Assembly: GCA_045577905.1 (NCBI GenBank)
Contig: JAZNJE010000123.1
Span: 1-56,761, forward strand
DNA length: 56,761 nt
Source of the DNA: Acutalibacteraceae bacterium
Lineage (GTDB): Bacteria; Bacillota; Clostridia; Oscillospirales; Acutalibacteraceae
Direction: 5' to 3'
Part shown: piece after piece, positions 17,404 to 49,911 of the stretch
How the letters are laid out: the number at the start of each line of letters is the position of its first letter
Numbering within the stretch: the first letter of the stretch is position 1
Translations under genes and position numbers: made by a program
Notes under the pieces: model-generated
The model's input: the letters and a program-made list of their open reading frames with translations, nothing else
Databases searched by the model: none
What the model was told of the DNA's origin: nothing

Positions 17404-18015
17404 ATGAAAGATATAAAACCCGTTATTGCAAAAAATATAACCCGTCTTCGTGTGGCGGCAGGAATGACGCAGGTTGAACTTGCCGAAAAACTGAACTACT
17501 CAGACAAGGCGGTTTCAAAGTGGGAAAGAGGAGAGTCGGTTCCCGACGTGGCGGTGCTTTTGGAGGTTGCTGAACTTTTTGGGGTTACCCTTGACTATCT
17601 TGTGCGCCCTCAAAAAGAAGATGTTAAGGTTACACAACTCGGAAAAGACAAAAGGAGAAACAGAGGGCTCATTACCGGAATTTCGGTTGTTCTCGTTTGG
17701 CTTATTGCAACGGTTGCCTTTGTTTCAACCGATATTGCGTCGGTTGAGTTTTCATACCGTTGGCTGGCGTTCCTCTGGGCTGCGCCAGCATCTCTTGTTG
17801 TTTGGCTTGTTTTCAATTCGGTATGGTTTAATAAGTCGGTCAATTTTGCGATAATTTCCCTGCTTATGTGGACGACCCTTGCGGCAGTTTATCTGACCCT
17901 GCTCCTCGCCGCAAGTCTTAATTGGTGGATTTTGTTCGTACTTGGGATACCGGCACAGATAATTATCTTTATGTGGTCGGGAATCAAGGTAAGGAATAGA
18001 AATAAGGAGATATAA
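17404..18015 (+). CDS. XRE-family HTH regulator with a C-terminal multi-TM domain
   Basis: N-terminal HTH (MTQVELAEKLNYSDKAVSKWERG) followed by about four predicted TM helices. Confidence 0.75.
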   Translation: MKDIKPVIAKNITRLRVAAGMTQVELAEKLNYSDKAVSKWERGESVPDVAVLLEVAELFGVTLDYLVRPQKEDVKVTQLGKDKRRNRGLITGISVVLVWLIATVAFVSTDIASVEFSYRWLAFLWAAPASLVVWLVFNSVWFNKSVNFAIISLLMWTTLAAVYLTLLLAASLNWWILFVLGIPAQIIIFMWSGIKVRNRNKEI

Positions 18016-19511: not shown

Positions 19512-20384
19512 ATGGAATTTATCGAAACATTGATAAGCGGTCTCAGCATAGGCGGAACCTACGCGATGATTGCTCTCGGCTACACTATGGTTTACGGCAT
19601 CGCAAAGATGCTTAACTTCGCTCACGGCGACGTTATCATGGTGGGCGCATATATGATTTTTGTGACAATGACTGCAAAGGGACACCCTCTTTTGGGCCTT
19701 CTTGGTGCGGTCTTGTTCTGCATACTGCTCGGTATCACAATCGAAAAGGTTGCTTACAAGCCTCTTCGAGGTGCATCACCCCTCGCTGTTCTTATAACTG
19801 CAATTGGTATGAGTTATTTGCTTCAGTCAACAGCCCAGATTATATTCGGCACAGCCCCTCAAAGAGCAAAAATTGCAGAGTTTGGCAGTATAAATATCGG
19901 TTCTGTGAGCATTCAAGTTTATACTCTCATAACCCTTGCCTGCTCGGTTGTAATAATGGTGGCGTTAAGTTTATTTATTAAATACACCAAGACAGGCCGT
20001 GCTATGATTGCTGTCTCTGAGGACAAGGGAGCCGCTCAACTTATGGGTATTAACGTAAATGCGATTATCTCTATAACCTTTGCGATAGGTTCGGGACTTG
20101 CAGCATTTGCAGGCTTCTTTATGCTTATGAAATCTCCTTATGTTACAAATACACTTGGTGCAATGCCCGGAATTAAGGCATTTACCGCAGCAGTTATCGG
20201 AGGAATCGGCTCCGTTCCGGGAGCAATGCTCGGTGGAATTTTAATGGGAATAGTAGAAGCCTTTGCATATACTGTTCCCGCAGTAGCACCCTACACCGAC
20301 GCTATTGAGTTCCTTATCCTCATCATAATACTTCTTGTACGTCCTTCGGGAATTCTCGGCAAGTTAAGAAGGGAGAAGGTATAA
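19512..20384 (+). CDS. livH: Branched-chain amino acid ABC permease (LivH type)
   Basis: Polytopic protein with typical LivH motifs. TAATG junction with the next gene. Confidence 0.85.
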   Translation: MEFIETLISGLSIGGTYAMIALGYTMVYGIAKMLNFAHGDVIMVGAYMIFVTMTAKGHPLLGLLGAVLFCILLGITIEKVAYKPLRGASPLAVLITAIGMSYLLQSTAQIIFGTAPQRAKIAEFGSINIGSVSIQVYTLITLACSVVIMVALSLFIKYTKTGRAMIAVSEDKGAAQLMGINVNAIISITFAIGSGLAAFAGFFMLMKSPYVTNTLGAMPGIKAFTAAVIGGIGSVPGAMLGGILMGIVEAFAYTVPAVAPYTDAIEFLILIIILLVRPSGILGKLRREKV

Positions 20385-21523
20385 TGGCTAAGACATCTGT
20401 TCTAAACCTCAAACACAATTTTAGTTATATTGTTATTGCAATAGTGACCATTGCCTTCGGCTCGGTTTCTCTTTTTGGAACGCTTCCTTCTTCGATTATC
20501 TATCTTCTTGAAAAAATTGCAATCGCTATAATGCTTGCGGTTTCCCTTTCAATGGTAGTAGGCTTCCTTGGAGAACTCTCGCTCGGCCACGCCGGATTTA
20601 TGTGCGTTGGCGCATATCTCGGTGGTAAGGTTTCGGCGGTCTTAGAGGCATCTATGGGCAAGGGCATCGGCAACCTATTGATATCGGTAGTTGTCGGAGG
20701 CGCCGTAGCGGCACTCTTCGGAGTTATTATCGGACTCCCTGCATTAAGACTCAAAGGAGACTATCTTGCAATCGTTACGCTCGCATTCGGCGAAATCGTA
20801 AGATCGGTATTTATGAATACAAGCGACGAAACTTTTGGCGGTGCAGACGGACTTGAAACCCCTCGGTTCCAGAAAAAAGAGTTGTTTATTATTGCCTTTG
20901 TTCTGGTTATCGTTTGTCTGTTTATAATTCAAAACCTTATTCGCTCTAAGCACGGTAGAGCAATTACTGCAATTCGCGATAACGAGATTGCCGCAAAGGC
21001 AACCGGAATCAACGTTACAAAGTATAAACTTGCTGTATTTACCGTGTCGGCACTTTTTGCCGGTGTTGCGGGCGTTCTTTACAGTTTTTCAAACTTTACG
21101 GTTCAGCCCGCAAAGTTCAGTTATAACTACTCGATTGAAATACTTGTAATGGTTGTTCTCGGAGGAATGGGAAGCATTAACGGTGCAATTATTGCGGCGG
21201 CACTCATTACCTATCTTGATACAACCCTCCAGACGGCTCTTACGGGAGAAATGGCAGTTCTGCAAGATCTGCTTTATGCGCTTATCCTTATTGTCATCGT
21301 TATTTACAACAATGCTCCCGCACTTAAAGGCTTCCGTGAGAAGTATAATTTTAAAAATCTCCTTACTAAAATATTCAGACCCAAGCACGATCCCTCAAAG
21401 GTTCACGACGACGAGCATAAGTGGGACCGAGTGCCTACAAAGATTGAGATGAACGAGGTTCTGTCGGTTGACATTCAACCCCAGATGTCCACCGTTGATC
21501 CCGATAAAAAGGAGGGTAAATAA
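20384..21523 (+). CDS. livM: Branched-chain amino acid ABC permease (LivM type)
   Basis: Polytopic protein in the expected operon position. Confidence 0.85.
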   Translation: MAKTSVLNLKHNFSYIVIAIVTIAFGSVSLFGTLPSSIIYLLEKIAIAIMLAVSLSMVVGFLGELSLGHAGFMCVGAYLGGKVSAVLEASMGKGIGNLLISVVVGGAVAALFGVIIGLPALRLKGDYLAIVTLAFGEIVRSVFMNTSDETFGGADGLETPRFQKKELFIIAFVLVIVCLFIIQNLIRSKHGRAITAIRDNEIAAKATGINVTKYKLAVFTVSALFAGVAGVLYSFSNFTVQPAKFSYNYSIEILVMVVLGGMGSINGAIIAAALITYLDTTLQTALTGEMAVLQDLLYALILIVIVIYNNAPALKGFREKYNFKNLLTKIFRPKHDPSKVHDDEHKWDRVPTKIEMNEVLSVDIQPQMSTVDPDKKEGK

Positions 21524-23059: not shown

Positions 23060-23824
23060 ATGAAAATAGCAATCATTACGGGCGCGTCAAGCGGAATGGG
23101 CAGAGAGTTCGTCCGCAGGATAGCCGACACAAAAAATCTCGACGAAATATGGGTCATTGCCCGCCGCCGAGAGAGACTTGAAGAACTTGACGGTCAGATG
23201 AAAACCAAGGTCAGGGCAATTCCGCTTGACCTTACAAAAAACGAGTCTTTCGAGGAATTAAAGGGTTTGCTTGACTCCGAAAGGCCGGAGGTTGAAGTCC
23301 TTGTTAACGCAAGCGGTTTTGGAGTTTTTGAGGAGTTTTTGAAGATTCCACTTTCACAGCAACTTGATATGATTGACCTGAACGATAAGGCTCTTGTTGC
23401 CGTAACCTACACCGTTTTGCCCTATATGGGTCGGGGCAGCGAGGTATATCAGATAGGCTCCCTTTCGTCTTTCCAACCGGTTCCCTATATCGCAACCTAC
23501 GGCGCAAGCAAGGCCTTTGTACTTTCATTTACAAGGGCGGTAAATGCCGAGTATAAGAAAAAGGGCATAAAAATGATGGCGGTCTGTCCCGGTTGGGTAA
23601 GAACCGAGTTTTTTGATACCGCAGTGGTTGACGATTCGGTAATCGTATATTATAACCAGTTCTTCACAGCAGAGCAGGTTGTAGAAAGAGCCATCAAAGA
23701 TATGAAAAAAGGCAAAGATGTCTCGGTTGTAGGTCCGATGATTCGGCTTCAAGTTCTTGCAACAAAACTTCTGCCCCACAAACTTGTTATGTGGATATGG
23801 CTAAAACAACAGAAGAAATTATAA
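23060..23824 (+). CDS. Short-chain dehydrogenase/reductase (SDR)
   Basis: TGASSGMG cofactor motif and the YxxxK catalytic motif (YGASK). Confidence 0.85.
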   Translation: MKIAIITGASSGMGREFVRRIADTKNLDEIWVIARRRERLEELDGQMKTKVRAIPLDLTKNESFEELKGLLDSERPEVEVLVNASGFGVFEEFLKIPLSQQLDMIDLNDKALVAVTYTVLPYMGRGSEVYQIGSLSSFQPVPYIATYGASKAFVLSFTRAVNAEYKKKGIKMMAVCPGWVRTEFFDTAVVDDSVIVYYNQFFTAEQVVERAIKDMKKGKDVSVVGPMIRLQVLATKLLPHKLVMWIWLKQQKKL

Positions 23825-23825
23825 A

Positions 23826-23872
23826 AACAAAACGGTCGGGGATTTGTGGTGAACTGCCCCGACCGTTTCTTT
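23826..23872. terminator. Bidirectional terminator between the SDR gene and the phage-like locus
   Basis: An 11-bp stem AACGGTCGGGG/CCCCGACCGTT is flanked by A and T runs. Confidence 0.7.
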
Positions 23873-24868
23873 TTATGCTTTTTTGATTATCCTTATCTGC
23901 AAACGGTCAATTTTCTTGCCGTAAACACCTGCATAATCATTGTTATCGGTTACCCACGGATAGTAACTGCCGCCGACCCTTGACACTCGGCACTGAACAG
24001 AGTAAGAAGGCTCGCCCAAAAGCCGTACCCTAACACAGTCAATATCCTTGCCGATGATTCCGGCATAATCCTCTCGGTTTTTAACCCAAGGGAGCCACCT
24101 TCCGCCGAGGGTGTGAACCTGATATTCAATATCCCCTTCGGTCAGTTCGGCATATATGCATTGGATATCCTGCCTCGGCAGTCCTGCATAGTCGCTCTCT
24201 CCGTTTACATTGGGAAGCCAACCGCGTTCGGCGGTATATACCTGATAGAGAACGTCCGGCAGAGCGACCGACTGAGGCTTACAACTCTTCTTTTTGAGTC
24301 CGCAACGGGAGATCAAAACCTCGCTGATTGCCTCGGCACACTGATTTGCGTATTTCTCGCTCAAAATAATCGGAACATCTGCCACCGAGTCCATAAAGCC
24401 AAGTTCAAGCAAGACAGCAGGCATATCGGTCTCTCGCAGTTCGTGAAAATCGGCGGTTGCAAGAGGATTGGCACGGTTGCCCCGAAGCCCGGTTTTGCGG
24501 ATAAGTGCGTTATAAAAATCCACCTTCCAATCGGCGGTTACGGTGTCGGTCGAGGTATATGTGTAGGCAACAATACCACCGCCCGAGCCACCGTTGATAC
24601 CGGCATTATGGTGAATTGAAAGATAAAGATGAGCACCCCATTTATTTGCGGTATCGGTTCTCTTTTTAAGGGAAACGTTGACCTTGCCTGTTATGTCATC
24701 AACCCTTATAAGTTCCGCCCCGTCATATTCCGATAAAATGGCTTGTACCTTATCGCAAATACGGGAGTTAAGGCTCCATTCCCTTGTTTCGTTCGGGTCA
24801 ATAGACTTTAAACATCTTTTACCGGCGGAATAAAGTCCGTGACCGGCGCTAAGAGCAATTTTAAACAC
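23873..24868 (-). CDS. Endolysin: N-acetylmuramoyl-L-alanine amidase (Amidase_3) with three C-terminal ChW-like repeats
   Basis: Catalytic-domain motifs SAGHG, SIHHNAG and ELGFMDS. The repeat Y.V....G.WLPWV......AG..G..ID is present three times. GTG start follows AAGGAG. Confidence 0.85.
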   Translation of the reverse strand: MFKIALSAGHGLYSAGKRCLKSIDPNETREWSLNSRICDKVQAILSEYDGAELIRVDDITGKVNVSLKKRTDTANKWGAHLYLSIHHNAGINGGSGGGIVAYTYTSTDTVTADWKVDFYNALIRKTGLRGNRANPLATADFHELRETDMPAVLLELGFMDSVADVPIILSEKYANQCAEAISEVLISRCGLKKKSCKPQSVALPDVLYQVYTAERGWLPNVNGESDYAGLPRQDIQCIYAELTEGDIEYQVHTLGGRWLPWVKNREDYAGIIGKDIDCVRVRLLGEPSYSVQCRVSRVGGSYYPWVTDNNDYAGVYGKKIDRLQIRIIKKA

Positions 24869-24870
24869 AG

Positions 24871-25131
24871 TTATTCTCCTTTTTCAATAAAAATCTTGAA
24901 TGTTTGATGCAGTCCGGTGGATGCGAGACCCGAAACAAGACCGCCGAGCAAAACTTGGGGGGTAAAAACGAATCTGTTTAGCCAAAAAGCAAGAACTAAA
25001 CCTATTGTTCCCATAATAAGCGGAATGTAGCGGTTAATTTTATCCCCGGGCAAAATATTCTTTATAATATATCCTACGCAAAGACATATTCCAATAATGA
25101 TAAACTCAAAATAATCTTTTAAAAATTCCAT
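24871..25131 (-). CDS. Phage holin
   Basis: 86 aa with 2-3 TM helices and a charged C-terminus, immediately upstream of the endolysin. Confidence 0.7.
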   Translation of the reverse strand: MEFLKDYFEFIIIGICLCVGYIIKNILPGDKINRYIPLIMGTIGLVLAFWLNRFVFTPQVLLGGLVSGLASTGLHQTFKIFIEKGE

Positions 25132-25135
25132 AAAT

Positions 25136-25384
25136 CTAACCTCCTTTGTGAAATTCTTCCAAATCTGCTATTCGGTGGTTTACAACCTTGATTTCTTCGT
25201 TTTGGACGGCATCGCTTTTTTCAAGTTCGCCGACCCGTTCAATCACACGGTTGTGCTTTTCAACCTTTTTTTCAAGTTGCTCTATTCGGTAAAGGGCAAG
25301 CCTGTTGGAAACAAGGATGCCACCAAAGGTGCCGAAAAGGGTACCGATAAGAGAAATTATACTGACAGTAAGTGCTTCGCTCAT
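25136..25384 (-). CDS. XhlA-like TM plus coiled-coil lysis accessory protein
   Basis: 82 aa with an N-terminal TM helix and a heptad-rich tail (IEQLEKKVEKHNRVIERVGELEKSDAVQNEEIK). Its position before the holin and amidase matches the PBSX xhlA-xhlB-xlyA arrangement. Confidence 0.5.
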   Translation of the reverse strand: MSEALTVSIISLIGTLFGTFGGILVSNRLALYRIEQLEKKVEKHNRVIERVGELEKSDAVQNEEIKVVNHRIADLEEFHKGG

Positions 25385-25617
25385 AAAAGGGACCTCTCCT
25401 CATTTTTTATTTTCTCAACAAAACTATTGTACTCTGCAAATTCTTCGGGTTTAGTATCCCTCTGCCTGAGTATTGCGAGTTCATCATCAACCGAATAGAC
25501 CTCACGAATGCGGTTTACCACCCTCTGCTCATAAGGAACAGGAGGAATATCTTTCTGCATTTGGGCAATTTCTTCCTCGGTCATATCTCTGTAAATTCCA
25601 TTATCATATATTCTCAT
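25381..25617 (-). CDS. Small tail-fibre-associated protein (XkdW-like)
   Basis: 78 aa with the motif DDELAILRQRD..PEEFAEYN, which is common downstream of fibre genes in Firmicute prophages. The ATG lies 2 nt after the fibre stop. Confidence 0.45.
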   Translation of the reverse strand: MRIYDNGIYRDMTEEEIAQMQKDIPPVPYEQRVVNRIREVYSVDDELAILRQRDTKPEEFAEYNSFVEKIKNEERSLL

Positions 25618-25619
25618 TT

Positions 25620-27008
25620 TTAACGCCCCCAAACCTTGAATTTTGTGCCTGCTGCAAATCCGTTTTCAGATGTGTTAAACTTTAAATCCTGACCCACGCT
25701 CGATATATAATTATAATTCCTTGCATCATTCATAAAGTAAGTCGAAACTGCTTTAAAGTTTGAACCTGCATTTGACGTAGTATAGTAATAAGAAGTTAGG
25801 TTTCCGTCACAAAAAATCTTATTATCAGGTGATATATATAAATCAGCAACAAAGTATAACTTTCCCGTTGATTTTGGACTTGCTTGTGAAGTCCACAACT
25901 GGGATCCTTCAAACGTCAAGCGAATTGATTGCGATGTTATTGTAGTATCACTCGGTATAACTAATGATTCTATATGGATTTCTTTAAAGCGAAGGTTACC
26001 TTTCGGTATTCGTATCTCCGTTACGGCCTCAGTTAAGGTTATATCCTCTATAAGTTCCCATTCTTTTTGAGCAACGGTTGATATTGCCTCGGCAACCGCT
26101 TTACCGCTTTGAGGGTTCAAACTTTCGGGGGAGTAGGTCTTGTCAACCGCCGACTTATTAAGTTTGTCGGAAACATCCTTAACAGCCTTAACACTGTTTA
26201 AGACAGTCGGATTTATGCCGTCCGAGGTAATATCAAGCAAATATTTATTGCCGACGATATATCCAAGTTCGGCAAATTTATCCAAGGAAGTGCTTTTCAA
26301 AAGACCCTGGCAATCGGTAAAAATCAACTCAAAGTTATTGTCAACGAGAGGCTTGATGTTTATAAGAGTATGGATATTTCTGCCGTTTGTTCCGTAATTG
26401 ATATCAAAAGGTGTTATTTCGGTAAGTTCAAGGTTAGCCTTCTCGACCACATCGGGGGTTTTGCCCGGCTCGCCCTTAAATTCTCCCCGTTCAAGACGGC
26501 CTTCAATGTCAAGCACAAGGTTTTGGGTTTCATTTTTGGTTTCGGTTAGTTCTTCTGCCGACACCCCTGCGCTGAGTATTTCGTCACGAATAGACCTTAC
26601 CGATTCTTCCATTGCCGAAAGGCTTTGGTGGGGCTTATCTTCGGCAAGGGGGCTTCGTTTAAGGGAGGTCAGATGTACCTTTACGGGGAAGGACAAAATT
26701 TCGGCATCGCGGTCGGTTATGACAAAAACCACCTCGACCTCATTGCCGAATCGTGTAGCCGAATAGGGCAGAGGGCGGGAAAAAGCACCCGAGGGGGAGG
26801 GGGTAAGATTCTCCGACGGGTTCCAACCGTCAACCGTGTTAAAATCAATGCGGAAAAGAGCAGATTCGCCGAGCATTTTTTTCAAAGAAGGGTCCATAAC
26901 AAAAGTAAAAAGGGTTGCGTTATCCTCGTACTGCATACCGCCCCAAACCCTCGGCGACGGGGTTTCGCGGTCGGCAGAAACGGTAAAAGTGTAGTTTCTA
27001 ACAGCCAT
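25620..27008 (-). CDS. Tail fibre / receptor-binding protein
   Basis: 462 aa with an N-terminal virion-attachment-like domain, a coiled-coil segment, a short collagen-like GEFKGEPGKTPD stretch and a beta-rich C-terminus. It lies between the tail and lysis genes. Confidence 0.55.
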   Translation of the reverse strand: MAVRNYTFTVSADRETPSPRVWGGMQYEDNATLFTFVMDPSLKKMLGESALFRIDFNTVDGWNPSENLTPSPSGAFSRPLPYSATRFGNEVEVVFVITDRDAEILSFPVKVHLTSLKRSPLAEDKPHQSLSAMEESVRSIRDEILSAGVSAEELTETKNETQNLVLDIEGRLERGEFKGEPGKTPDVVEKANLELTEITPFDINYGTNGRNIHTLINIKPLVDNNFELIFTDCQGLLKSTSLDKFAELGYIVGNKYLLDITSDGINPTVLNSVKAVKDVSDKLNKSAVDKTYSPESLNPQSGKAVAEAISTVAQKEWELIEDITLTEAVTEIRIPKGNLRFKEIHIESLVIPSDTTITSQSIRLTFEGSQLWTSQASPKSTGKLYFVADLYISPDNKIFCDGNLTSYYYTTSNAGSNFKAVSTYFMNDARNYNYISSVGQDLKFNTSENGFAAGTKFKVWGR

Positions 27009-27042
27009 ATTTTTTCTCCTTTATAATCATAATGGTCATTAT

Positions 27043-29004
27043 TTAACGATTCCTACGCGGCGTATAAAAAACCGCAAAATCGTTTATTTCAAGTTTTCCT
27101 TTTGCCGAAATCACAAACAGTATGTCTGTAAGAAAGGCGGGAAGGCGGACTTCGTTCGAGCCGTTAAAAATTTCGGTCGTCATAAAGTGCTCCCCGTCGG
27201 CAAAAACCGAAAGTTCGGCATATCCGTCGGCTTTTATGACGGCAAGTACCGAATGGAGGCGAGCCTGTTCGGGATTATCGAAGGGAGATATTGTAACCGA
27301 GGTTTCAATCGGCAGAGAGTCGGCCTCGTCGGGGTCAAGAGTGCCGAGCAAAAAGCGGTCGCAATCATCTTTCAGGGTAAAAACATATATTGAACTGCTC
27401 ATATTGTTGGCAAGGAAAAAAGCATTGCCCCCAACCGAAAGGGCATTAAGCACCTTGACGGGAAGGTCAAAGGAAGGAATAAAGGACAGGTTTTTGCCGA
27501 TTGGAACCGAAAATACAGAGTTTTCGGTAAAAACCAGATAGTTTTCGCCGTCGGCAACGGCAAAACGGGGCTCCCCGTCCACTTCTCCCGCCTTGTCACA
27601 GGAAAGTGAGGAAGAAAGGGAGAAAATCTCGCCCGATTCGGAGGAAAACAGCATTTTGTCCTCTGTTTTGACGAGGGTTCGGGGAAGAAGGGTTGTTCCA
27701 AGACCGGCAACCGATTCCAAGGTAAGTTTGGGTGTAGAAAAGGAGGAAGGAGGCCTTGTTCCCGATAAAACATCGGGGATTGAATAGGGCTCGGAGGAGA
27801 CAACCTTTGCCGAGAAAACCGTGTGAGGTTTAAAAATTAAGAGTTTTCCTTTAACCGAGTCGAGAGCAACCACCGAACCCGACGGCTCGGGCAGAGAAAC
27901 AGAGCAACTTTTCGGAAAATAAAGGGGATTTACGGGGTCTATCCACAAAAGGTCGTGAGGATAGTATCGGCTTCCCGAAAAAACTGTAACCGATTCCGAA
28001 CCGCTTCCCTTAAAGGCGGCAAGGGTGGTTGAACGGCTCATAGAACATACCCTTAAAGCCTCATCGGGGGAAACCGTCTTGTACCGAAAAGTAAGACTGT
28101 TCGGCCGACCTGCGTAGGGTAGAGGGAAGGTGGCGGGACCGTCATAGAAAATGATTTTACCGCTGCTTCTGTCACAGTACATAACCACCTCGGTTTCGTC
28201 AACCGTTTGGGGAGCCGAATGGGTAGAGCCTGCGGCAATTTCCCATACCGTTTTGTCCCCCTCTGCCGAAACATAGGTAGCCCTGATTTTTTCGGAGGGG
28301 TCAGGCAGTCGGGGCAAAATAAAAATATAGGAATGTCGGTCGGCGGTAAAGGTGCAGTCGATAACCGACGTCAGCAAATTTTCGCTTTCAAAGACGGCGG
28401 GGGCGGGGATATAGAAGTCATCTGCCTCGCCATTTACAAATAGGTTGCCTCTGCCGTTTATAAATGCCGTAGGTATATAAAAATCTCCGTCGCTGAGCAA
28501 TCGCCAGGAATCAAGGGTAGATGCAAGTTCGTAAAATCTTACCGTATCGGGTTGGTTGCCGTAACAGATACGGACGGCAAGATATATGCCGGCACCGTAA
28601 AGGGGTTTGCCCGAGTAAAGGAAAAAGGTATCGGGGACGCCAAAGGTGTAACTGTCGGAACGGGAAAAGAGCACCTTACCGAGGGGCATAATTTCGCCGG
28701 TCTCAAAAAAAGCATTAAAGGCATATGAAATATTGCTGTACCCATCCTCCTCGATAACCGCCGCTATTTGCGCCTGACGGTTATTTATGCCGAGGGTAAG
28801 GTCGGTAACCGAAAATGTTGTATAGGAATCTTCGGTCAGGATAGGGTTAAAAATTACGGGAGACGCAGGTAGGCGCATACCCGACCTTGAAACGAGTTTT
28901 CGGTCTTTCGGCACCATATTTACGGCAGACCGAATTTTATCAAAATTACTCTCCGAATTTACCGACACCCTAACAAGATTTCTCTTTTTTGGGTTAATTA
29001 GCAC
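27043..29004 (-). CDS. Large tail structural protein (unknown family)
   Basis: 653 aa, beta-rich. GTG at 29004 lies 6 nt after GGAGGTG and overlaps the upstream stop by 11 nt. The ORF-track start at 29139 would overlap the upstream gene by 145 nt. Confidence 0.5.
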   Translation of the reverse strand: MLINPKKRNLVRVSVNSESNFDKIRSAVNMVPKDRKLVSRSGMRLPASPVIFNPILTEDSYTTFSVTDLTLGINNRQAQIAAVIEEDGYSNISYAFNAFFETGEIMPLGKVLFSRSDSYTFGVPDTFFLYSGKPLYGAGIYLAVRICYGNQPDTVRFYELASTLDSWRLLSDGDFYIPTAFINGRGNLFVNGEADDFYIPAPAVFESENLLTSVIDCTFTADRHSYIFILPRLPDPSEKIRATYVSAEGDKTVWEIAAGSTHSAPQTVDETEVVMYCDRSSGKIIFYDGPATFPLPYAGRPNSLTFRYKTVSPDEALRVCSMSRSTTLAAFKGSGSESVTVFSGSRYYPHDLLWIDPVNPLYFPKSCSVSLPEPSGSVVALDSVKGKLLIFKPHTVFSAKVVSSEPYSIPDVLSGTRPPSSFSTPKLTLESVAGLGTTLLPRTLVKTEDKMLFSSESGEIFSLSSSLSCDKAGEVDGEPRFAVADGENYLVFTENSVFSVPIGKNLSFIPSFDLPVKVLNALSVGGNAFFLANNMSSSIYVFTLKDDCDRFLLGTLDPDEADSLPIETSVTISPFDNPEQARLHSVLAVIKADGYAELSVFADGEHFMTTEIFNGSNEVRLPAFLTDILFVISAKGKLEINDFAVFYTPRRNR

Positions 29005-29332
29005 AGGGCTCACCTCCGAAAAGAGTGTTGCGGACGGTGTCGGTGCAGGAGAGGTACTTCTTTTTAAGATTGTTATAAACGTCGTTAAACTCAGAGGCCC
29101 CTGCGTCATCCCCCAACAATATACTGATGAGCATTGCAATACCGATTTCGAGGAGTATTTTTCCTCCCCTTTGAAGGGTGGGAATCGGGTCGGTCAAAGA
29201 GCAAACCGACTCGGCACCTATATCACTCAGTATGGTGTTTGTGAAGCCGACCGCCGCCTTTTTAATAAGTTCCGAAGGTGCACCACCTCCGCAGAGGGCA
29301 TAGGCTTCGGTTAAAATATCAATTACCTTCAT
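28994..29332 (-). CDS. Head-tail connector/adaptor-size protein (unknown family)
   Basis: 112-aa helical protein overlapping the portal stop, in the position expected for a head-completion or adaptor protein. Confidence 0.4.
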   Translation of the reverse strand: MKVIDILTEAYALCGGGAPSELIKKAAVGFTNTILSDIGAESVCSLTDPIPTLQRGGKILLEIGIAMLISILLGDDAGASEFNDVYNNLKKKYLSCTDTVRNTLFGGEPCAN

Positions 29333-30935
29333 TTTTAATTTCCTCCATCTGATTTTTTAGGTCCTCAATATCGGGAATGAGGGAAGAAGGCAGTCGCTTT
29401 ACATACTGCAAGGCTGAAATTGCCCCCTTTTCGTAAAGAGAAGTCAGCAGTTTTGCAGAATCTTCTTCACTGCGTGTGACTCCTTCGGACAAGACAACCG
29501 AAACCGACAAAAGAAGGTCACGGTACCGTGCAGAATCGAAGGGGAAATACCACTCTCCGTTTTCGTCGCTTATTTTGAGACCTCTTTTTCCGTACATTGT
29601 CACAAAAAACTCTGCCCAAATAAGGGCAATTTCCTCTATAAAACGGTTGAAGCGGTTTTTGAGGAGAACAAGGGGTTCGGTAGCCGCTGCACGCAGGGCG
29701 ATGATTGCGGATGTATTGTCGGTTGACATGTCACCCAGAGCAGCCATTGTAGCACCGCTTTGGGAGAGGGTATTTACAATAAGTTGAGATACCGATTGAT
29801 TAAAGCCGGAAGAAAAATCAGGCGGATTTATGTATTTTACCGCAGATGAAATTTCCTCCGCATTACCCCAAACACGGATTATTTGTCCGGGGTCGTTGGT
29901 AATGTCCTCGGGGACGAGTTCTCCGTTTACTACCATAAGGGGCATACCGCTTGACACCGCCGACCAAACCGATGCCGTAATCATACGGTTTATTGCAATC
30001 TGATTGGGTATTAAGTAGGTAATTTCGCTGTCGCCGTAAATATTGTTGTCACGGGGCTCCCAAACAAACCCCGCAAGGGGATACAGCCTGACCCCGATGT
30101 CCCACTCTTCACGGACCGTAAAGTCTCGGGTTACCTTAACCGCAAAAATGTGCATACTGCCGTCAGGAAGCCTCTTTTTATAAAGACGGGTCAAAAGAAG
30201 AATCTTTTCTGCCGACTCCTCAGGAGTTGGCTCAGGCAGAGAGGTCTGTCCGAAGAGCCTTGCCTCATAAAGAAGGTCGGCAAGAGGCTTTTTCTCGGCA
30301 AGAATAATAAAGGGTTGAGATTGAAGACGGGTGCAGGTGGGGTCGCCGAAATATACGTTTTCGGCTCGGACAACCTCCGAAACAATGTCTCCGAGTATTG
30401 GTTTTCCACCGATTTTGTCTGCATAAAGCCCCGTTCTTACCGACGGGTCAAAATAGGTGTAGATATATCCGCTTCCCGAAATATATGCGTTTTTAAGGGC
30501 AGAGTCCAAAAGTGCGGGCAGTCCCACCCTTTTGGAGACGGTGTCTCGGTAGGAGTTAAGTGCCGAGGTCATAAGGGCAATTTCATTCTTGCTTTGTATC
30601 GGAGCATAGAGAGAATCTCCCCGCTTTGAAAGAGCCTTTCTTTCTTCCTTGACGGCACGGTCGGTATCCTTGGTGTGGGGGACACCCTCTGCGGTGTAGC
30701 AAACCTTAATCTTCGATGAGACAAGTTGACTCATTTTGAAGTCGCCTATTCTCTTAATAACATTGTGTCTGACCAAAGGGCGGTCGGAAGGAGAGGAAAC
30801 ACCGCTCCACTGGTCGCCCGCAAAAAAGCGTTCGTTAAATTTTATCTGCTCATAAAGTCCTCTGTTTCCTACCGAGGACTTAAATTGCCGAATACGGTTA
30901 TATTCTTCAAAGATTTTTTCGCGGCTTATCTGCAT
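29319..30935 (-). CDS. Portal protein
   Basis: 538 aa with a portal-typical N-terminal motif (NERFFAGDQW), appropriate size and genomic context. The ATG at 30935 lies after a terminator hairpin and the RBS-like GAAAGGA. Confidence 0.7.
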   Translation of the reverse strand: MQISREKIFEEYNRIRQFKSSVGNRGLYEQIKFNERFFAGDQWSGVSSPSDRPLVRHNVIKRIGDFKMSQLVSSKIKVCYTAEGVPHTKDTDRAVKEERKALSKRGDSLYAPIQSKNEIALMTSALNSYRDTVSKRVGLPALLDSALKNAYISGSGYIYTYFDPSVRTGLYADKIGGKPILGDIVSEVVRAENVYFGDPTCTRLQSQPFIILAEKKPLADLLYEARLFGQTSLPEPTPEESAEKILLLTRLYKKRLPDGSMHIFAVKVTRDFTVREEWDIGVRLYPLAGFVWEPRDNNIYGDSEITYLIPNQIAINRMITASVWSAVSSGMPLMVVNGELVPEDITNDPGQIIRVWGNAEEISSAVKYINPPDFSSGFNQSVSQLIVNTLSQSGATMAALGDMSTDNTSAIIALRAAATEPLVLLKNRFNRFIEEIALIWAEFFVTMYGKRGLKISDENGEWYFPFDSARYRDLLLSVSVVLSEGVTRSEEDSAKLLTSLYEKGAISALQYVKRLPSSLIPDIEDLKNQMEEIKNEGN

Positions 30936-30951
30936 AAAATCATCCTTTCTT

Positions 30952-30981
30952 AAAAAAGGGACGGAGGTTGCCCTCCGTCCC
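30952..30981 (-). terminator. Intrinsic terminator-like hairpin between the capsid and portal genes
   Basis: A 10-bp GC-rich stem GGGACGGAGG/CCTCCGTCCC is followed by TTTTTT on the minus strand. Confidence 0.6.
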
Positions 30982-30988
30982 AAAGTGA

Positions 30989-32170
30989 TTACGCTACCGT
31001 AACAGTTGCAACCTCGGAATTAACCGAGTTGGTACCGTCGGCGGTAACCTTACAGAAGAAGTAATATTCTCCTGCGGGAAGGTCGTCAGGAATGTTCATA
31101 GATGCGGCAGTTTCTCCTATAAGACGGGCAGCGCCCCTACCGTTTTTGATGTCAGCCTGATACCATTGGTATGCAAGTTCAACACCTGCTTCGGAGGTTG
31201 CGGCAACCGAGAGAGACTCGTTTATTGCACCCTCGGTTACGGTAATGTCGGAGGGAGAAGACGTAATGGTAAGGGGAGAAGAGAAGAAGCCCCAAACCGT
31301 ATCGGTTGCCGAAGCCTTTACAAATACGTCGTAGTAAATACGGTAATCGAACTTGTAGGCATCGGCGCCGGTGTTCTGTTCAGGTGTGAAAACCCTGAGT
31401 TTTTCGGTTTTCTTTACAAGATGAGCAGCGGTTTTGGGAAGAAGGAGCATATAAATTCCGCGGGCGCCGTCGGCAGGAACAAATCCGCCGACCGCATCGT
31501 TCTTGAAGTTATAGGCGGTCTTCATTCTCTCGCTTACAACGGGAATAATGGCAACACCGTTAATCGACTTAACTTTGAGGTTGATTTCGCCCTGCTTAAA
31601 GTCAGAAACGGTAACAAAGCGTGTAATCTCGGCAGAGGACATAAGTGCGGCATAAGCAACAGAGTCCATAAAGCAAACGAGGTCACGGTCATAGCCTGCA
31701 ACCGACTGAACCTGATTTACAAGGGTAGAAAAAGCCTCGAAAGGTCTTTCAAGGTCGCCTGCAATTGCGTTGCCCTTTGAAAGAGCAAGGTTGCCGAGTT
31801 TTGATATAACATAGGCATCACATTCGGGAACAACCTTTGTTTTAACATATTCGCCGAGCACCTTTCCTGCGAGATTTGCAATGCCGGTCTCGTCCATATC
31901 TTCACGGTCGATGGTAAGCGAACGGGCACGGTCCATTGTCATTGTGTAGGAACTTCCTTTTACCGAAACTGAGCCGCTTGCAAAACCGTTAGCACGGTCA
32001 TAATCGGCTAGTCCGTCAAAGTCAACGTCGGGAATGATAACGGTTTTTGCACCGACAAAACGGGTGCGAAGAATGTTGTCGGCAAGGAATGCGGTGGCAC
32101 TCTTTGCCTCGAAAACACGGTCAAGTGCGCCGGAATAGTTTTCGGCGGCAGCAATAGAATTGATAGACAT
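30989..32170 (-). CDS. Major capsid protein with a C-terminal Ig-like domain
   Basis: 393 aa, immediately after the scaffold gene. The last ~95 aa resemble a bacterial Ig-like domain (ITVTEG....YQWY....AGEYYFFCKVT). Confidence 0.7.
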   Translation of the reverse strand: MSINSIAAAENYSGALDRVFEAKSATAFLADNILRTRFVGAKTVIIPDVDFDGLADYDRANGFASGSVSVKGSSYTMTMDRARSLTIDREDMDETGIANLAGKVLGEYVKTKVVPECDAYVISKLGNLALSKGNAIAGDLERPFEAFSTLVNQVQSVAGYDRDLVCFMDSVAYAALMSSAEITRFVTVSDFKQGEINLKVKSINGVAIIPVVSERMKTAYNFKNDAVGGFVPADGARGIYMLLLPKTAAHLVKKTEKLRVFTPEQNTGADAYKFDYRIYYDVFVKASATDTVWGFFSSPLTITSSPSDITVTEGAINESLSVAATSEAGVELAYQWYQADIKNGRGAARLIGETAASMNIPDDLPAGEYYFFCKVTADGTNSVNSEVATVTVA

Positions 32171-32196
32171 AAATTTTTTCTCCTTAAATAGTTTTT

Positions 32197-32703
32197 TCAG
32201 TTACCCCAAACGCCCTTTAAAAATTCTGCGGCGGTGGGGTCCTGTCGGTCATCTGCCGACAGAGAGCCGGTGGTAGAGGCGGCGGTAAAACATTGATTCT
32301 CGGTTTCTTCTGCCGCCGCCTTTGCCTTTTTATACTCGTAGAGCAGGTACTCAAAAACCAGTCCTGTACCATTATTTTTTGCGGCTGTTTTTACCTCCTC
32401 GGGGAGCATATCGGGTGAGGAAATTTCGGGGAAATGAATACGTAATTGACCAAAATTATCGGGGCTTTCAGCCTGCGCGCGCAATTTTTCGTAGTCCTCA
32501 TAAATCTGGTCAAACTTCATTCCCTTTTGTGCCAGACTGACGGCAGTTTCTCGGTCAAGGTCCAAAATTTCTTTGTTAAACTTGATTTTCATAAAACTGT
32601 CGCAGGGGGAAGGGAGGTCGGGTGTGGTTGCCTCGTCCTTCTCATTTAAAATCTCCTCCTCGGTCTGTGGTTGGACCGAATCATCTTTTAATTTTTCTTC
32701 CAT
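32197..32703 (-). CDS. Scaffolding protein
   Basis: Acidic, helical, 168 aa, with the IKFNKEI..L...A..LAQKGM motif, located upstream of the capsid gene. Confidence 0.6.
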   Translation of the reverse strand: MEEKLKDDSVQPQTEEEILNEKDEATTPDLPSPCDSFMKIKFNKEILDLDRETAVSLAQKGMKFDQIYEDYEKLRAQAESPDNFGQLRIHFPEISSPDMLPEEVKTAAKNNGTGLVFEYLLYEYKKAKAAAEETENQCFTAASTTGSLSADDRQDPTAAEFLKGVWGN

Positions 32704-32873
32704 TTAGAAATTTCCTCCGTTAATTCAAAAATTTTTTCGCTTCCGTCAAAGGACAGGAAGTCATAAAGGCCGACTGCTTCGCCCTTCCTTCGGGTGGCAG
32801 GGGGCTTTTTTGTCCTTCTTTTTCCTAAATTCCAACCGATAATAAGAAAGACAAGTGCAACAAGTGCGGTCAT
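32688..32873 (-). CDS. Small membrane peptide (one TM followed by a basic stretch)
   Basis: The ATG at 32873 overlaps the TerL stop (ATGA). Function is unknown. Confidence 0.4.
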   Translation of the reverse strand: MTALVALVFLIIGWNLGKRRTKKPPATRRKGEAVGLYDFLSFDGSEKIFELTEEISKWKKN

Positions 32874-34117
32874 ACACTCCACCCCCCTTTGTTTCCGTAA
32901 AGCCTCCTCGACGGCTCTCCGCCGTTTTTAACATCGTAAAAGGCATAGCGGAGAGCATCCATAAGGTGGTTGTCGGAGTCCATCGGGGTGTTGGGAAGAC
33001 TCTTGTTCCAACGGTATGAGGAAAGTTCTTCCAGAGTGTTCTTGCATTTTGGGTCAACAATAATTCGGTATTCGCTTATGTTCATAATTCCGTTTATAAT
33101 ACTGTCTTTGCCCTTGACCGACGGCATAAGACGGGTCAGACCGAGCCGTCTTAAATCCTCGTTCGTTTTGGGCTCGGCAGAGTCGGCACGTATCCGTTCC
33201 TTGCCGTAGCCCTTTTGGATAATCAGTCGGGCAATGTCGGAATTGAGCATCTTTTTCTGACAAAACTCATCAAAAATATAAATGATTTTTTCCTCACGGT
33301 TGACCTTGATTGCAATAAAGGCGGTCGGGTCGGTGGTGTAGCCGTAATCGAGGCCGAAAAATGCCTGCCAGTTTCCCTTGGCGGTGTCGGGAACACCCGT
33401 AATCCAGTTTTCATAAACCAGACCTTCGGCAATTCCCCATTCGCCAAGCCCCGCAACAGCATATCGACGGGGATGCTCGGTTTTGAGCCGTTCAAAAACC
33501 GCACGGTCGGTTTGGTCCAAAAATTCGTTTACCAGATAGTTGGTCGAAAAAACCGTACAGTCGGGGGAAGGATTGTCAAAGAAACGGGCTTTCAGCCAAT
33601 GCTTTTCGCTCCAAGGGTTAAAGGTCAAGGTTGTCTGCTTGAAAAGGGGAGGGGGAAGACTTCCCCTCGGCACCGATAAATCAAGTTTTTCAAAGTCGGA
33701 AAGTTCGGCGATTTCATAGGCTTCTTCAACCCAAACAAAATTGAGAAAACCTTTCTCGACGGTGGTTGATGCCAACTTCAAAACGTCGTCAAACCCTCTG
33801 AAAAGTATTTTTTGACCGGTGGGAATATAGGTCATTTCAAGCGGAGCAACACAGTTTTTAAAAAGGTGAGAAACCCCGAGTTTTTCCTGCGCCCATTTAA
33901 GTTGGGCAAAGGTCGAGTCTCGGTGGGTGTTCATAACGGCTCGGACTACAAGAATATTGCTTTGGGGATACCGTATGAGGCGGTAAATAAGATTGAGCGC
34001 AGTTGTCGCAGATTTTTTGGAGCCCTTTCCGCCCTTTAAAACCCTGTAACGGGTCTTACAGTTCCAAAACTCATCGTATCCGTCTCCGACCTTCTCTTTA
34101 AGACTTACCGATGTCAT
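32870..34117 (-). CDS. Terminase large subunit (PBSX family)
   Basis: Walker A GGKGSKKS, Walker B-like FVWVEEA, and nuclease motifs GLDYG, DSAEP and DNHLMDALRYA. The start is uncertain (ATG at 34117 or GTG at 34132). Confidence 0.9.
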   Translation of the reverse strand: MTSVSLKEKVGDGYDEFWNCKTRYRVLKGGKGSKKSATTALNLIYRLIRYPQSNILVVRAVMNTHRDSTFAQLKWAQEKLGVSHLFKNCVAPLEMTYIPTGQKILFRGFDDVLKLASTTVEKGFLNFVWVEEAYEIAELSDFEKLDLSVPRGSLPPPLFKQTTLTFNPWSEKHWLKARFFDNPSPDCTVFSTNYLVNEFLDQTDRAVFERLKTEHPRRYAVAGLGEWGIAEGLVYENWITGVPDTAKGNWQAFFGLDYGYTTDPTAFIAIKVNREEKIIYIFDEFCQKKMLNSDIARLIIQKGYGKERIRADSAEPKTNEDLRRLGLTRLMPSVKGKDSIINGIMNISEYRIIVDPKCKNTLEELSSYRWNKSLPNTPMDSDNHLMDALRYAFYDVKNGGEPSRRLYGNKGGWSV

Positions 34118-34352
34118 CGACAAGGGTAACACCTCCCGAAACCTCTCCGAGTCCGATAATTCCGAGCAGTTCCTTTATTGCGGAAAGTTCTCCTCCCGCC
34201 GCCTTTTTATAGAGTGCGGCGGCAATTACCGTCATACGGGTCGGCTTTTTCACCTTAATTTCCATCTCCGAGAGCCGTTCATCTTCTTCTGCTGTCGCAG
34301 GCAGACGTAACAGACGGAGCAGTTCATCGGATAACTGTTTTTTGCTTTTCAA
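34098..34352 (-). CDS. Short terminase small-subunit-like protein
   Basis: 84 aa with a segment resembling the TerS helix (MTVIAAALYKKAAGGELSAIKELL). TTG start lies 7 nt after AGGAGGTG, and the gene overlaps TerL. Confidence 0.4.
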   Translation of the reverse strand: MKSKKQLSDELLRLLRLPATAEEDERLSEMEIKVKKPTRMTVIAAALYKKAAGGELSAIKELLGIIGLGEVSGGVTLVDDIGKS

Positions 34353-34379
34353 TTCGGCTCACCTCCTGACCGCAGGCAA

Positions 34380-34445
34380 ATTCTACAACAAAACAGTAGG
34401 ACATAAACGGACAAAAAAGCCTAAAAAGCGGACACGGGAGGACAT
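34380..34445 (-). promoter_or_regulatory. Promoter of the phage-like locus: four phased TGTCC direct repeats plus the -10 TAGAAT, with no -35
   Basis: Minus strand reads ATGTCCtcccgTGTCC-N16-TGTCCgtttaTGTCC-N13-TAGAAT. Box start-to-start spacings are 10, 21 and 10 nt. Confidence 0.6.
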
Positions 34446-34505: not shown

Positions 34506-34874
34506 CTAATTTCGGTCATGGGGTTTAAAAATCAGCGAGGCAAAATATCCCGAAACAATTGCCGTCGCAATACCTGCCGCCGTTGCCGTAAGTCCTCCTG
34601 TAAAAATTCCGATAAATCCGTATTGACCAACCGCTTTTCTTATCCCTTCGGCAAGGGAATGGCCGAATCCGGTAAGGGGAACTGTGGCGCCCGCTCCCGC
34701 AAATTCTGCTAAGGGACCGTAAACGCCGACGGCAGAAAGTATTACCCCCGACACCACAAATCCGACAAGAATACGTGCAGGAGTAAGTTTGGTAAAATCA
34801 ATCAGAATTTGACCGACAAGACAAAAACTGCCCCCCACAAGAAAAGCCTTTAAACAGTTTATAAAAATATCCAT
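34506..34874 (-). CDS. spoVAE: Stage V sporulation protein AE (SpoVAE/SpoVAEB type)
   Basis: Strong resemblance to SpoVAE (AFLVGG..C..GQ.L.D.TKLTPA, AGAGATVPLTGFG, IFKP). Confidence 0.8.
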   Translation of the reverse strand: MDIFINCLKAFLVGGSFCLVGQILIDFTKLTPARILVGFVVSGVILSAVGVYGPLAEFAGAGATVPLTGFGHSLAEGIRKAVGQYGFIGIFTGGLTATAAGIATAIVSGYFASLIFKPHDRN

Positions 34875-35799: not shown

Positions 35800-35884
35800 G
35801 CAGGGGTGCTGAAATTGGCATACAGGCTGGCCTCAGACACCAGTGGAGTCATCCGTGCGGGTTCAAGTCCCGTCCCCTGCACCA
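35800..35884 (+). tRNA. tRNA-Leu (anticodon CAG), long variable arm, CCA encoded
   Basis: Manual cloverleaf: GCAGGGG acceptor, anticodon loop CTCAGAC, variable arm TGGAGTCATCCGT, T arm GCGGG-TTCAAGT-CCCGT. Confidence 0.85.
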
Positions 35885-36140: not shown

Positions 36141-36488
36141 ATGTCGAAAAACTATTTACTAACATATTCTGAGCAACTTGCAACAGAGATCGAATTGCTT
36201 TGTCAAAATATAAAAGCCTCTTCCAACACTCTTTTCCAAATCCGTAAGAGTTCAAGCAGTGCATATGCAAATATTCGTGAGGCTAATTACGGACAAAGCA
36301 AAGCGGATATGCTTTCAAAATTTGAAATTGCACTCAAGGAATGCAGTGAAACAGAGGGTTGGTTGCAGTTGTTATATAATACAAAGGGCATCAATGAAAC
36401 GACCTACAAAAGCCACAGAAATCTTTGCGGTCGCATCAGGCGACTGTTGATCGCCTCTTGTAAAACATTAAAGGAGAATGTAAAATGA
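36141..36488 (+). CDS. Four-helix-bundle protein (23S rRNA intervening-sequence protein / Avd-like family)
   Basis: 115-aa helical protein with the motifs KFEIALKECSETEGWLQLL and LIASCKT.KEN, both shared with the paralog at 323..676. Confidence 0.8.
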   Translation: MSKNYLLTYSEQLATEIELLCQNIKASSNTLFQIRKSSSSAYANIREANYGQSKADMLSKFEIALKECSETEGWLQLLYNTKGINETTYKSHRNLCGRIRRLLIASCKTLKENVK

Positions 36489-49583: not shown

Positions 49584-49660
49584 CCGCTCGTGGCGCAGTT
49601 GGATAACGCAGCAGATTCCGATTCTGAAGAACGGGGGTTCGAATCCCTTCGAGCGGGCCA
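49584..49660 (+). tRNA. tRNA-Arg (anticodon CCG), atypical, CCA encoded
   Basis: Manual cloverleaf: acceptor CCGCTCG/CGAGCGG (C1:G72), anticodon loop TTCCGAT, T arm GGGGG-TTCGAAT-CCCTT with two G:U pairs, and one D-stem mismatch. Confidence 0.7.
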
Positions 49661-49911
49661 AAGAAAACGACAAGTTTCGATAGAACCTTGTCTTTTTCAG
49701 TTATATTCGCCTTGCGGCGAGTTAGGCACAATATCACTTAAAACTGTAGGGGTTCAAACACATAGGTTGACTTTTTGAAAGGTATCGAATCTACACACCC
49801 TTTCCAAATAAAAATGAGCCTACCGTAAGGTTTCGGCTTGTTTTTATTTTGTGATAACTATGAGGGATGAGAAGCAGGAGTAGTAGCGAATACTATAGTT
49901 TTATAAAAAAG

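Follow-up and report, generated by a model that had tools for sequence, protein, structure and literature searches.

Whether a compact set of phage-type genes in a bacterial chromosome is what is left of a prophage, or an operon that the host lineage has retained to make particles of its own, is the question raised by a locus in an Acutalibacteraceae bacterium. The locus occupies positions 23873-34352 of the minus strand in a 56,761-nucleotide stretch of DNA (contig JAZNJE010000123.1 of assembly GCA_045577905.1, hereafter the window) and comprises, over about 10.5 kb, 13 co-directional open reading frames (ORFs) with several short overlaps. An earlier note on this DNA had listed these minus-strand ORFs, all of which are present where it placed them, and had read them as a domesticated, short-tailed particle resembling a gene transfer agent (GTA) or PBSX. 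The refutation tests run here lend support to that interpretation. The locus is very probably a selectively maintained operon for the production of particles, and the fuller reading, according to which these particles are GTA-like and the operon is a domesticated phage module, is given a probability of roughly 0.55.

One hallmark of GTAs and other viriforms is the presence on the chromosome of structural and packaging genes without functions for autonomous replication, integration or excision, and this is the composition of the locus. The larger ORFs in the rest of the window were all scanned against Pfam, apart from two Liv-type permease ORFs (19512-21523) that are housekeeping by context, and no integrase, recombinase, phage repressor or replication family was revealed. 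The family-matched ORFs were housekeeping or unrelated genes (TrkAH, DegV, Liv-type ABC, NadABC, SerS, ParA/ParB and GlnA-like). Sheath, tube, tape measure and baseplate families were found neither in the locus nor elsewhere in the window, the operon encodes no protease, and no credible direct repeats flank it. The operon is bordered by an SDR gene (23060-23824), with which it has a bidirectional terminator hairpin in common (23824-23874), and on the promoter side by a SpoVAC/SpoVAEB-family gene (34506-34874) with its terminator at 34491-34463. In these flanks and absences, as in the host-like base composition of the locus, the initial description was accurate: the GC content at third codon positions is 0.483 in the element and 0.467 +/- 0.045 in host genes, and codon usage correlates with that of the host at r = 0.93.

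A second hallmark, vertical inheritance under purifying selection rather than prophage turnover, is apparent from the relatives of the element. The portal protein has more than 2,200 homologues in the protein collection, and a relative is encoded in no fewer than 535 stretches of species-representative genomes; of these the 80 best come almost all from Acutalibacteraceae or unclassified Clostridia metagenome-assembled genomes of human, ruminant and other animal guts. The same module of about 10 kb lies between housekeeping genes on chromosomal contigs of 66-637 kb, and no integrase or replication module adjoins the element in those relatives found on long contigs (217-637 kb). ORF clustering across all loci defined a core of eight genes in invariant order (short TerS, TerL, a peptide of about 62 aa, scaffold, capsid, portal, a protein of about 112 aa and one of about 660 aa), 3' of which lies a variable fibre and lysis region. 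The core genes are intact single ORFs in essentially all 54 compact loci where the contig covers them, with one to three possible exceptions. In a neighbour-joining tree of portal proteins that includes phage contigs from IMG/VR, the compact loci form one clade (49 of 50 bootstraps) nested among phage-like relatives. Of the three findings that had been named as fatal to the interpretation, neither an adjacent integrase and replication module nor decay by frameshift was encountered in the window, the long contigs or the 54 loci.

Chromosomal sites are fixed within sub-clades of the compact element, which follows TrmA-Maf in nine species and MetG-SSF in six others, and locus L013 has the SDR-ABC side in common with the window. 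The identity of the core proteins (portal, TerL and capsid, by BLAST) rises and falls with that of the housekeeping proteins beside the element (36 pairs, r = 0.95; 15 pairs, r = 0.84), the species pairs not being independent of one another. In comparisons with the six closest relatives, in which synonymous sites are saturated, dN/dS was 0.06-0.08 for TerL, 0.06-0.17 for the capsid protein, 0.08-0.14 for the portal, 0.06-0.12 for the amidase and 0.2-0.3 for tail proteins. Synteny and purifying selection had been proposed at the outset as a check, and the clade-fixed sites, the SDR-ABC side of L013 and the low values for TerL, capsid and portal all come out in favour of the interpretation. By these comparisons the compact element is vertically inherited and under purifying selection.

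The origin of the operon can be traced to phages that still exist as such. Podophage contigs of 31-39 kb in IMG/VR (e.g. IMGVR_UViG_3300045988_114625) encode portals 40-49% identical, capsid proteins 46-60% identical and TerL up to 69% identical to those of the element, in the order TerS-TerL-peptide-scaffold-capsid-portal followed by proteins of about 120, 720 and 325 aa. Since these phages have the same gene order, the minimal tail is ancestral to the phage group and not a product of decay. In the phage contigs a further 25-30 kb of genes, approximately and partly on the opposite strand, flank the head-tail module. Judged by this homology, the locus is the late-gene module of a podophage with free relatives of 31-39 kb, now a resident operon of an Acutalibacteraceae lineage. 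As the phage ancestors are identifiable, the steps of domestication can be read directly. Portals measure 518-555 aa in compact elements and 565-650 aa in phage relatives, the portal in the window lacking the C-terminal extension of about 70-100 aa found in the phages, and scaffolds measure 163-233 aa and 255-296 aa, respectively. The capsid protein has changed in the other direction, with about 390 aa and an extra C-terminal domain of about 100 aa, while most phage relatives have 295-317 aa and no such domain. A further difference is that in TerS, which has 123-188 aa and HTH_Tnp_1_2 or Terminase_2 domains in the phage relatives and about 85 aa without any family match in compact elements. 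In the window the TerS-like protein (34098-34352, minus strand, 84 aa), which overlaps TerL directly 5' of it and is conserved in 42 loci, has no recognisable DNA-binding domain and no match in Pfam, PHROG or NCBIfam. It was aligned by hhalign only to the C-terminal half (residues 79-127 of 128) of a phage TerS with an N-terminal HTH, with a probability of 78% and E 1.9e-5, and 40 of 40 relatives of the compact TerS in a library of 1.84 billion proteins were likewise short.

The phages also offer an indication of the regulation that the element once had. A sigma-r4/DUF1492-type ORF lies directly 5' of TerS in some phage contigs and in phage-like relatives within bacterial genomes, and the genome-resident phage-like relatives (among L048-L085) also have a CI/LexA-like repressor (phrog_4). 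By profile searches the window and the 10 kb on either side of every compact locus contain neither this activator nor a CI-like repressor. Taken with the shorter TerS, portal and scaffold, the comparison indicates that repressor, activator and early genes were lost on domestication. Two rearranged relatives (L051, 7903-11409, and L072, 16443-19940) keep the regulatory pair beside a tandem-box promoter. In these, host genes are followed by portal-adaptor-TerL-fibre-lysis, then by a 570-aa membrane protein and the CI-like repressor on the opposite strand, and finally by the DUF1492-like activator with short TerS, peptide and scaffold. This arrangement may represent an intermediate stage of domestication.

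An own promoter directly after the spoVAE terminator had been claimed for the operon, and one is indeed present, but it is of the activator type and not a sigma-70 consensus. At 34380-34445 (minus strand) tandem TGTCC boxes (34430-34444 and 34399-34413) precede the -10 hexamer TAGAAT (34385-34380), with the last box starting 18 nt before the hexamer, and neither a sigma-70 nor a -35 consensus was found before the operon. Tandem TGTC[C/G] boxes with a period of 10-11 nt are situated upstream of the TerS-like gene in all four compact sub-clades, in the form ATGTCGGTGAATGTCGCA in clades C and D and as repeated ATGTCC in clade A, to which the window belongs. The strict box pattern occurred within 150 nt in 21 of 37 related loci, against an expectation of 0.5%, and the distance from the start of the last box to a TAnAAT hexamer is exactly 18 nt in clades A, C and D, against 28 nt in clade B. 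In some phage relatives the same boxes are located immediately 3' of the sigma-r4/DUF1492-type activator gene. We infer that the boxes have the architecture of an activator-dependent late promoter whose activator now acts in trans, and so sharply defined a motif provides a handle for finding both the regulator and its regulon. Spo0A, whose 0A box is TGTCGAA, was considered as the main reading of these boxes, as TGTCGGT-N3-TGTCGCA resembles tandem 0A boxes, and was dropped because clade A uses TGTCC and because the boxes in phage relatives come directly after an activator gene of sigma-r4 type that belongs to the phage itself.

Three copies of the pattern TGTCS-N5-TGTCS are present in the whole window, against 0.28 expected. 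Two of the sites belong to the operon promoter and the third, at 49935-49949, lies in an AT-rich islet (49584-50886, 35% GC) directly after tRNA-Arg, which holds a tandem-box promoter and a pair of genes for proteins of 185 and 87 aa. This second copy of the promoter (49912-49968, plus strand) has ATGTCC at 49912 and 49934, TGTCC at 49945 and TATAAT 18 nt after the last box. The 185-aa protein (50019-50576, plus strand), a candidate minor capsid protein of MuF-like type, has a CxxC...HHPFCHC motif in its N-terminal part and matches the domain DUF6883 (PF21814) with 30.8 bits, the cut-off being 27. Nearly all of its 524 homologues have 185 aa, and identity is 58-85% across the 120 best. Its AlphaFold model (predicted local distance difference test score, pLDDT, 88) found its best viral fold matches in predicted phage proteins labelled 'minor capsid protein' (E 5.5e-6 and 7.3e-5). 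No fold match was obtained in the PDB and no similar gene in the GenBank phage collection. A MuF toxin identity was rejected for this protein, which is conserved in both length and sequence and for which no fold of toxin type was seen. The 87-aa partner (50563-50826, plus strand) is always encoded after the 185-aa gene. In other genomes the pair stands alone between housekeeping genes, often on very short contigs; it adjoins related head-tail modules in L121 and L059, and in L169 it has the promoter form of clades C and D with the same 18-nt spacing. The GC content of the cassette is about 33-36% irrespective of the host (about 33-34% for the stand-alone copies), which gives it the appearance of a mobile accessory module that has come under the same regulator. 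The islet, which the earlier note had held up as a contrast to the operon, thus carries the same promoter motif, and its cassette is probably a co-regulated part of the operon's system. The description of the locus as self-contained holds in that there are no mobility genes, but the operon is not fully self-contained because its promoter looks activator-dependent with no activator in cis and a co-regulated cassette lies 15.5 kb away.

Several other explanations of the operon have to be weighed. A dependence on phage for its expression would be expected of a defence or piracy element, in which the late activator of a related podophage, infecting or co-resident, triggers the operon and leads to premature lysis, to competition for capsids or to packaging of host DNA at the expense of the phage. 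The promoter type is common to the phage relatives, where it directly follows the activator gene, and the lack of an activator homologue near any compact locus would agree with a trigger that is supplied by the phage. Yet the box sequence is nearly invariant across many species per clade (ATGTCGGTGAATGTCGCA in clades C and D), as is more readily expected of a regulator that the host encodes and inherits vertically than of phage regulators, which evolve fast, and tail and fibre genes, needless for a purely intracellular defence, are kept under constraint. We therefore consider defence or piracy unlikely. It is distinctly unlikely that the product is a killer or cargo-delivery particle, PBSX-like in function, in which packaged DNA is a by-product and productive transfer does not take place. 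The PBSX-family TerL and the PBSX-like order of fibre, small proteins, XhlA-like protein, holin and amidase may be cited for it, as may the rapid diversification of the tail proteins and the co-regulated minor-capsid-like gene with its 87-aa partner gene. A contractile tail, sheath or tape measure is missing from the locus, however, no toxin domain was detected, and the 185-aa protein is invariant in length and, at 58-85% identity across the 120 best of 524 homologues, more uniform than polymorphic toxins.

A further explanation is that of a self-transducing minimal element, packaged in situ from a site inside the operon into a head of at least about 11 kb that would carry the locus and its flanks, and installed in the recipient by homologous recombination. 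The 10.5-kb locus is within the size range of small phage heads, and a chromosomal site that differs among the closest relatives is what such installation would leave behind. This is nevertheless quite improbable given the co-divergence with flanking genes in two clades, a TerS in which no pac-recognition domain is recognisable, and the want of any replication function by which the locus could amplify itself. That the operon is the late region of an ordinary prophage or an inert remnant is hardly credible. All of its genes are phage-derived, and a decayed siphophage tail lies beside the element in L003, L010 and L011, which indicates that remnants accumulate there, but the lysogeny and replication module is absent from the window and from the flanks of relatives, the ORFs are intact in about 55 species-level genomes, and purifying selection and co-divergence with the host are not what decay would produce.

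On the reading that the operon encodes a domesticated, GTA-like particle, a trans-encoded activator would bind the tandem ATGTC[C/G] boxes and switch on the operon in a fraction of the cells, and the same activator would switch on the unlinked cassette for the minor-capsid-like protein. A TerS without a recognisable DNA-binding domain could let the terminase start packaging on any DNA and, since the locus neither excises nor replicates, the heads would fill with pieces of the host chromosome. The truncated TerS and the distribution of the system over more than one locus are indirect hints that particles may package essentially random host DNA in pieces too small for the complete gene set. Holin and amidase would then lyse the producer cell and release short-tailed particles, whose fast-evolving tail proteins could bind related cells and set the target range. 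If active, such a system would be a major route of gene flow in abundant and poorly cultured gut bacteria.

Several points weigh against the GTA-like reading. For the element family, particles, packaged DNA and transfer are all predicted from genes, the truncation of TerS is drawn from one moderate profile alignment, and the roles of the tail proteins from their position. Phages with genomes of 31-39 kb to package have a capsid core about 50% identical to that of the element. The chromosomal site is inconstant within the closest clade, where the site of the window and L013 is neither that of L003/L011 nor that of L010, L009 and L012, and the correlations of core and flanking identity share the non-independence of their species pairs. 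Finally, the search of the window and of 10 kb to either side of the element in relatives did not detect the activator, so that the operon could rely for its expression on a phage that infects the cell or resides in it, and not on the host. More tentatively, and as a possibility that we would not quite expect to hold in full, the element may be an ancient GTA of much of the Acutalibacteraceae, domesticated once from a podophage of about 39 kb. It would then be the most compact complete particle-making system known, with head, tail, packaging and lysis in one 10.5-kb operon. Tandem ATGTC[C/G] boxes would place it under a conserved activator working in trans, to which a mobile AT-rich cassette for a minor-capsid-like protein would also respond. 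Such a system could explain some of the GTA-like signals in gut viromes for which gene clusters have not been identified.

The individual parts of the operon, all on the minus strand, differ in how firmly they can be assigned. Profile searches confirmed the PBSX-family TerL, the capsid protein, the portal, the holin and the Amidase_3 endolysin that had been named before, while the roles given to the TerS-like protein, membrane peptide, scaffold and proteins of 112, 653 and 462 aa have position and conservation in their favour. TerL (32870-34132, with a likely ATG start at 34116) has the Pfam domains Terminase_3 and Terminase_3C and matches the PBSX-family profile TIGR01547 of NCBIfam with 146.5 bits against a cut-off of 105. 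The membrane peptide (32688-32882, 61-64 aa), with an N-terminal transmembrane helix and no known family, is found in 55 loci between TerL and scaffold, and the slot is kept in compact elements and phage relatives alike, an ORF of similar size being present in the phage contigs. An acidic, scaffold-like protein of 168 aa (32197-32703) is placed by its position before the capsid gene and has family members in 72 loci. The major capsid protein (30989-32170, 393 aa; phrog_422 major head protein, E 1.9e-71) consists of an HK97-type core of about 290 aa and a C-terminal domain of about 100 aa, and is 30-35% identical to capsids of phages of 34-56 kb. An Ig-like nature had been claimed for its C-terminus, for which Pfam gave no match, though to judge by its sequence it resembles such a domain. 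A GC-rich hairpin of 10 bp followed by a T-run (30958-30981) lies precisely in the interval from the stop of the capsid gene to the start of the portal gene; it may act as an attenuating terminator and so give capsid protein in excess. The portal (29319-30935, ORF to 30983, 538 aa; phrog_156) is of podovirus type and aligns along some 90% of its length, at 29% identity, with a portal of Bacillus phage Page that is labelled 'podovirus-type'. Some of its homologues carry the Pfam domains P22_portal or Head-tail_con, and neither portal nor capsid matched any PDB sequence.

Downstream of the portal, the 112-aa protein (28994-29332), a candidate head-to-tail adaptor, has family members in 71 loci, where it invariably separates the portal from the large tail protein. 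The latter, of 653 aa (27043-29004), is a candidate nozzle or tail knob conserved in 70 loci and in phage relatives, where it has 711-755 aa; its family evolves fast, with about 20-31% identity, and is nevertheless constrained (dN/dS 0.2-0.3). The variable 462-aa protein (25620-27008) may be a distal tail protein, fibre or receptor-binding protein, and the content of its slot differs by clade, with a 390-aa GHL10 protein, a 407-aa protein with a tail-fibre C-terminus (phrog_2712) or a 573-aa protein in others. Profile and structure searches, which had been suggested as a way to identify these three proteins, added nothing to their identity. No match was found in Pfam, PHROGs or NCBIfam, hhalign against the tail proteins of phage Page gave none either, and family alignments of the 112- and 653-aa proteins against PDB sequences returned only a non-significant 'nozzle protein' match to the 653-aa protein (E 0.14). 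The AlphaFold model of the 653-aa protein, built on a three-sequence alignment, was unusable (pLDDT 38.5) because a word-indexed homologue search had yielded only two relatives. In a sub-clade formed by L041, L042, L057, L063 and L084, four to five extra conserved genes follow the gene for the protein of about 390 aa; they encode a protein of about 627 aa (not in L041), two paralogous proteins of about 372-404 aa and one of about 473 aa with a glycosyltransferase-like region, and the usual lysis cassette is missing at that place.

The lysis end of the operon comprises four genes in the window. A protein of 78-83 aa (25381-25632) follows the fibre gene in several clades and has no family match, so that its designation as an 'XkdW-like' peptide obtained no backing from Pfam or PHROG. 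The 82-aa XhlA-like membrane protein (25136-25384) matches phrog_1863 (E 8e-11) and, below threshold, PF10779 (E 3.6e-4; 21 bits against a cut-off of 34.7), and its assignment to XhlA stands in this qualified form. It is followed by the holin (24871-25131; Phage_holin_5_2, phrog_1129) and the endolysin (23873-24868), which has an Amidase_3 domain (phrog_435) and a C-terminal domain of wall-binding type covered by phrog_3393. The ChW domain once attributed to the endolysin was not recovered, Amidase_3 being the only Pfam match even at E<=1.

Some observations concern the surroundings of the element. Directly upstream of it, L003 (1553-6428), L010 (67-5089) and, at the equivalent place, L011 hold the siphophage tail remnant mentioned above, made up of a C-terminal tape-measure fragment, a phrog_18190 protein and a phrog_372/DUF859 tail protein. 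The genes in this position were considered as a counterpart of the second operon of a known GTA (see below) and rejected, as the tape-measure fragment and distal tail proteins identify them as siphophage remnant. Genes inserted between Maf and the element in L033, L038 and L039 were likewise rejected as regulators, since by sequence they belong to sugar-nucleotide metabolism. In the window, the SpoVAC/SpoVAEB-family gene (34506-34874, minus strand) immediately upstream of the operon promoter stands alone with its own terminator, with neither spoVAD nor a second spoVA gene adjoining. Two paralogous ORFs of the 23S_rRNA_IVP four-helix-bundle family are located at 323-685 (minus strand) and 36141-36488 (plus strand), the latter past tRNA-Leu (35800-35884), at a distance of 1.8 kb on the upstream side of the operon. 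About 6 kb from the lysis end of the operon, an ORF at 17404-18015 (plus strand) encodes an Xre-type HTH protein whose C-terminal part spans the membrane several times; it is not a repressor of CI/LexA type and no link to the element was found.

Among known systems, PBSX resembles the element in its large terminase family, in the order of fibre, small proteins, XhlA-like protein, holin and amidase, and in being chromosomal and non-replicating, and it packages random 13-kb pieces of host DNA. The PBSX locus, however, spans 28 kb, is myovirus-like in possessing sheath, tube, tape measure and baseplate, and includes an Xre repressor and a sigma-like activator in cis, while the element has neither those tail genes nor a regulator in cis. 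Bacillus phage Page (Pagevirus) is a more distant relative than the podophages of IMG/VR. The RcGTA of the Alphaproteobacteria is likewise a vertically inherited head-tail cluster under purifying selection, with a TerS devoid of a DNA-binding domain, accessory genes at other loci and a regulator encoded elsewhere. It differs in having no sequence relationship to the element, in being siphovirus-like with its lysis genes elsewhere, and in its known regulation by CtrA/GafA. Capsid-forming phage-inducible chromosomal islands (cf-PICIs) are comparable as small islands of about 10-15 kb with terminase, capsid and portal genes of their own, and the promoter of the element may similarly respond to a phage factor. 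In contrast to the element, which has tail and lysis genes, fixed sites and no mobility genes, cf-PICIs are mobile, carry integrase, regulatory and replication genes with att sites, and have neither tails nor lysis genes.

The closest parallel is FpGTA of Faecalibacterium prausnitzii (Borodovich et al., Nat Commun 2026, PMC12946183), which consists of a 10.5-kb operon I and a 5.5-kb operon II situated 125 kb apart. FpGTA has been shown experimentally to form 40-nm particles with 8.4-8.9 kb of random host DNA; its gene set is described as homologous to genes of short-tailed phages, and its authors regard it as the first podovirus-like GTA-like element (PMC12946183). That a minimal short-tailed element would be unusual in Clostridia, as the earlier note had remarked, is weakened by this precedent. 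The same study reports GTA-like packaging in several other Oscillospirales and Christensenellales taxa, in which the genes were not identified (PMC12946183), and for Butyricicoccaceae a candidate cluster of 12.7 kb, with a transcriptional activator among its genes, is described in a 2026 mouse preprint. A published description of the present element family was not found in the literature. FpGTA and the element are alike as chromosomal operons of about 10.5 kb in gut Oscillospirales, each with a small TerS without a DNA-binding domain, TerL, portal, scaffold, capsid, short-tail-type genes, holin and endolysin and without replication or integration genes, and FpGTA is conserved across its genus. 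They differ in that annotation places the capsid of FpGTA in the N4-gp56 family and labels its TerL 'Terminase-like family', while the element has a phrog_422 capsid, for which no NCBIfam profile, N4-gp56 included, matched at E<=0.1, and a TIGR01547 TerL. FpGTA has the order TerL-portal-Prp protease-capsid, with tail and lysis genes in operon II, but the element has the order TerL-peptide-scaffold-capsid-portal-tail-lysis in one operon without a protease. Particles have been seen for FpGTA, and the element family is known here from its genes. These differences are best read as making the element analogous to, and not homologous with, FpGTA. GTAs have long been known almost only from the Alphaproteobacteria, and long-read virome work of 2024-2026 has found GTA-like packaging to be common in gut Clostridia, where a responsible gene cluster has been identified only in Faecalibacterium. 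A second candidate, derived from a podovirus and domesticated independently, is the element described here, which a neighbouring family carries in at least 54 species-level genomes from the guts of humans, ruminants and other animals.

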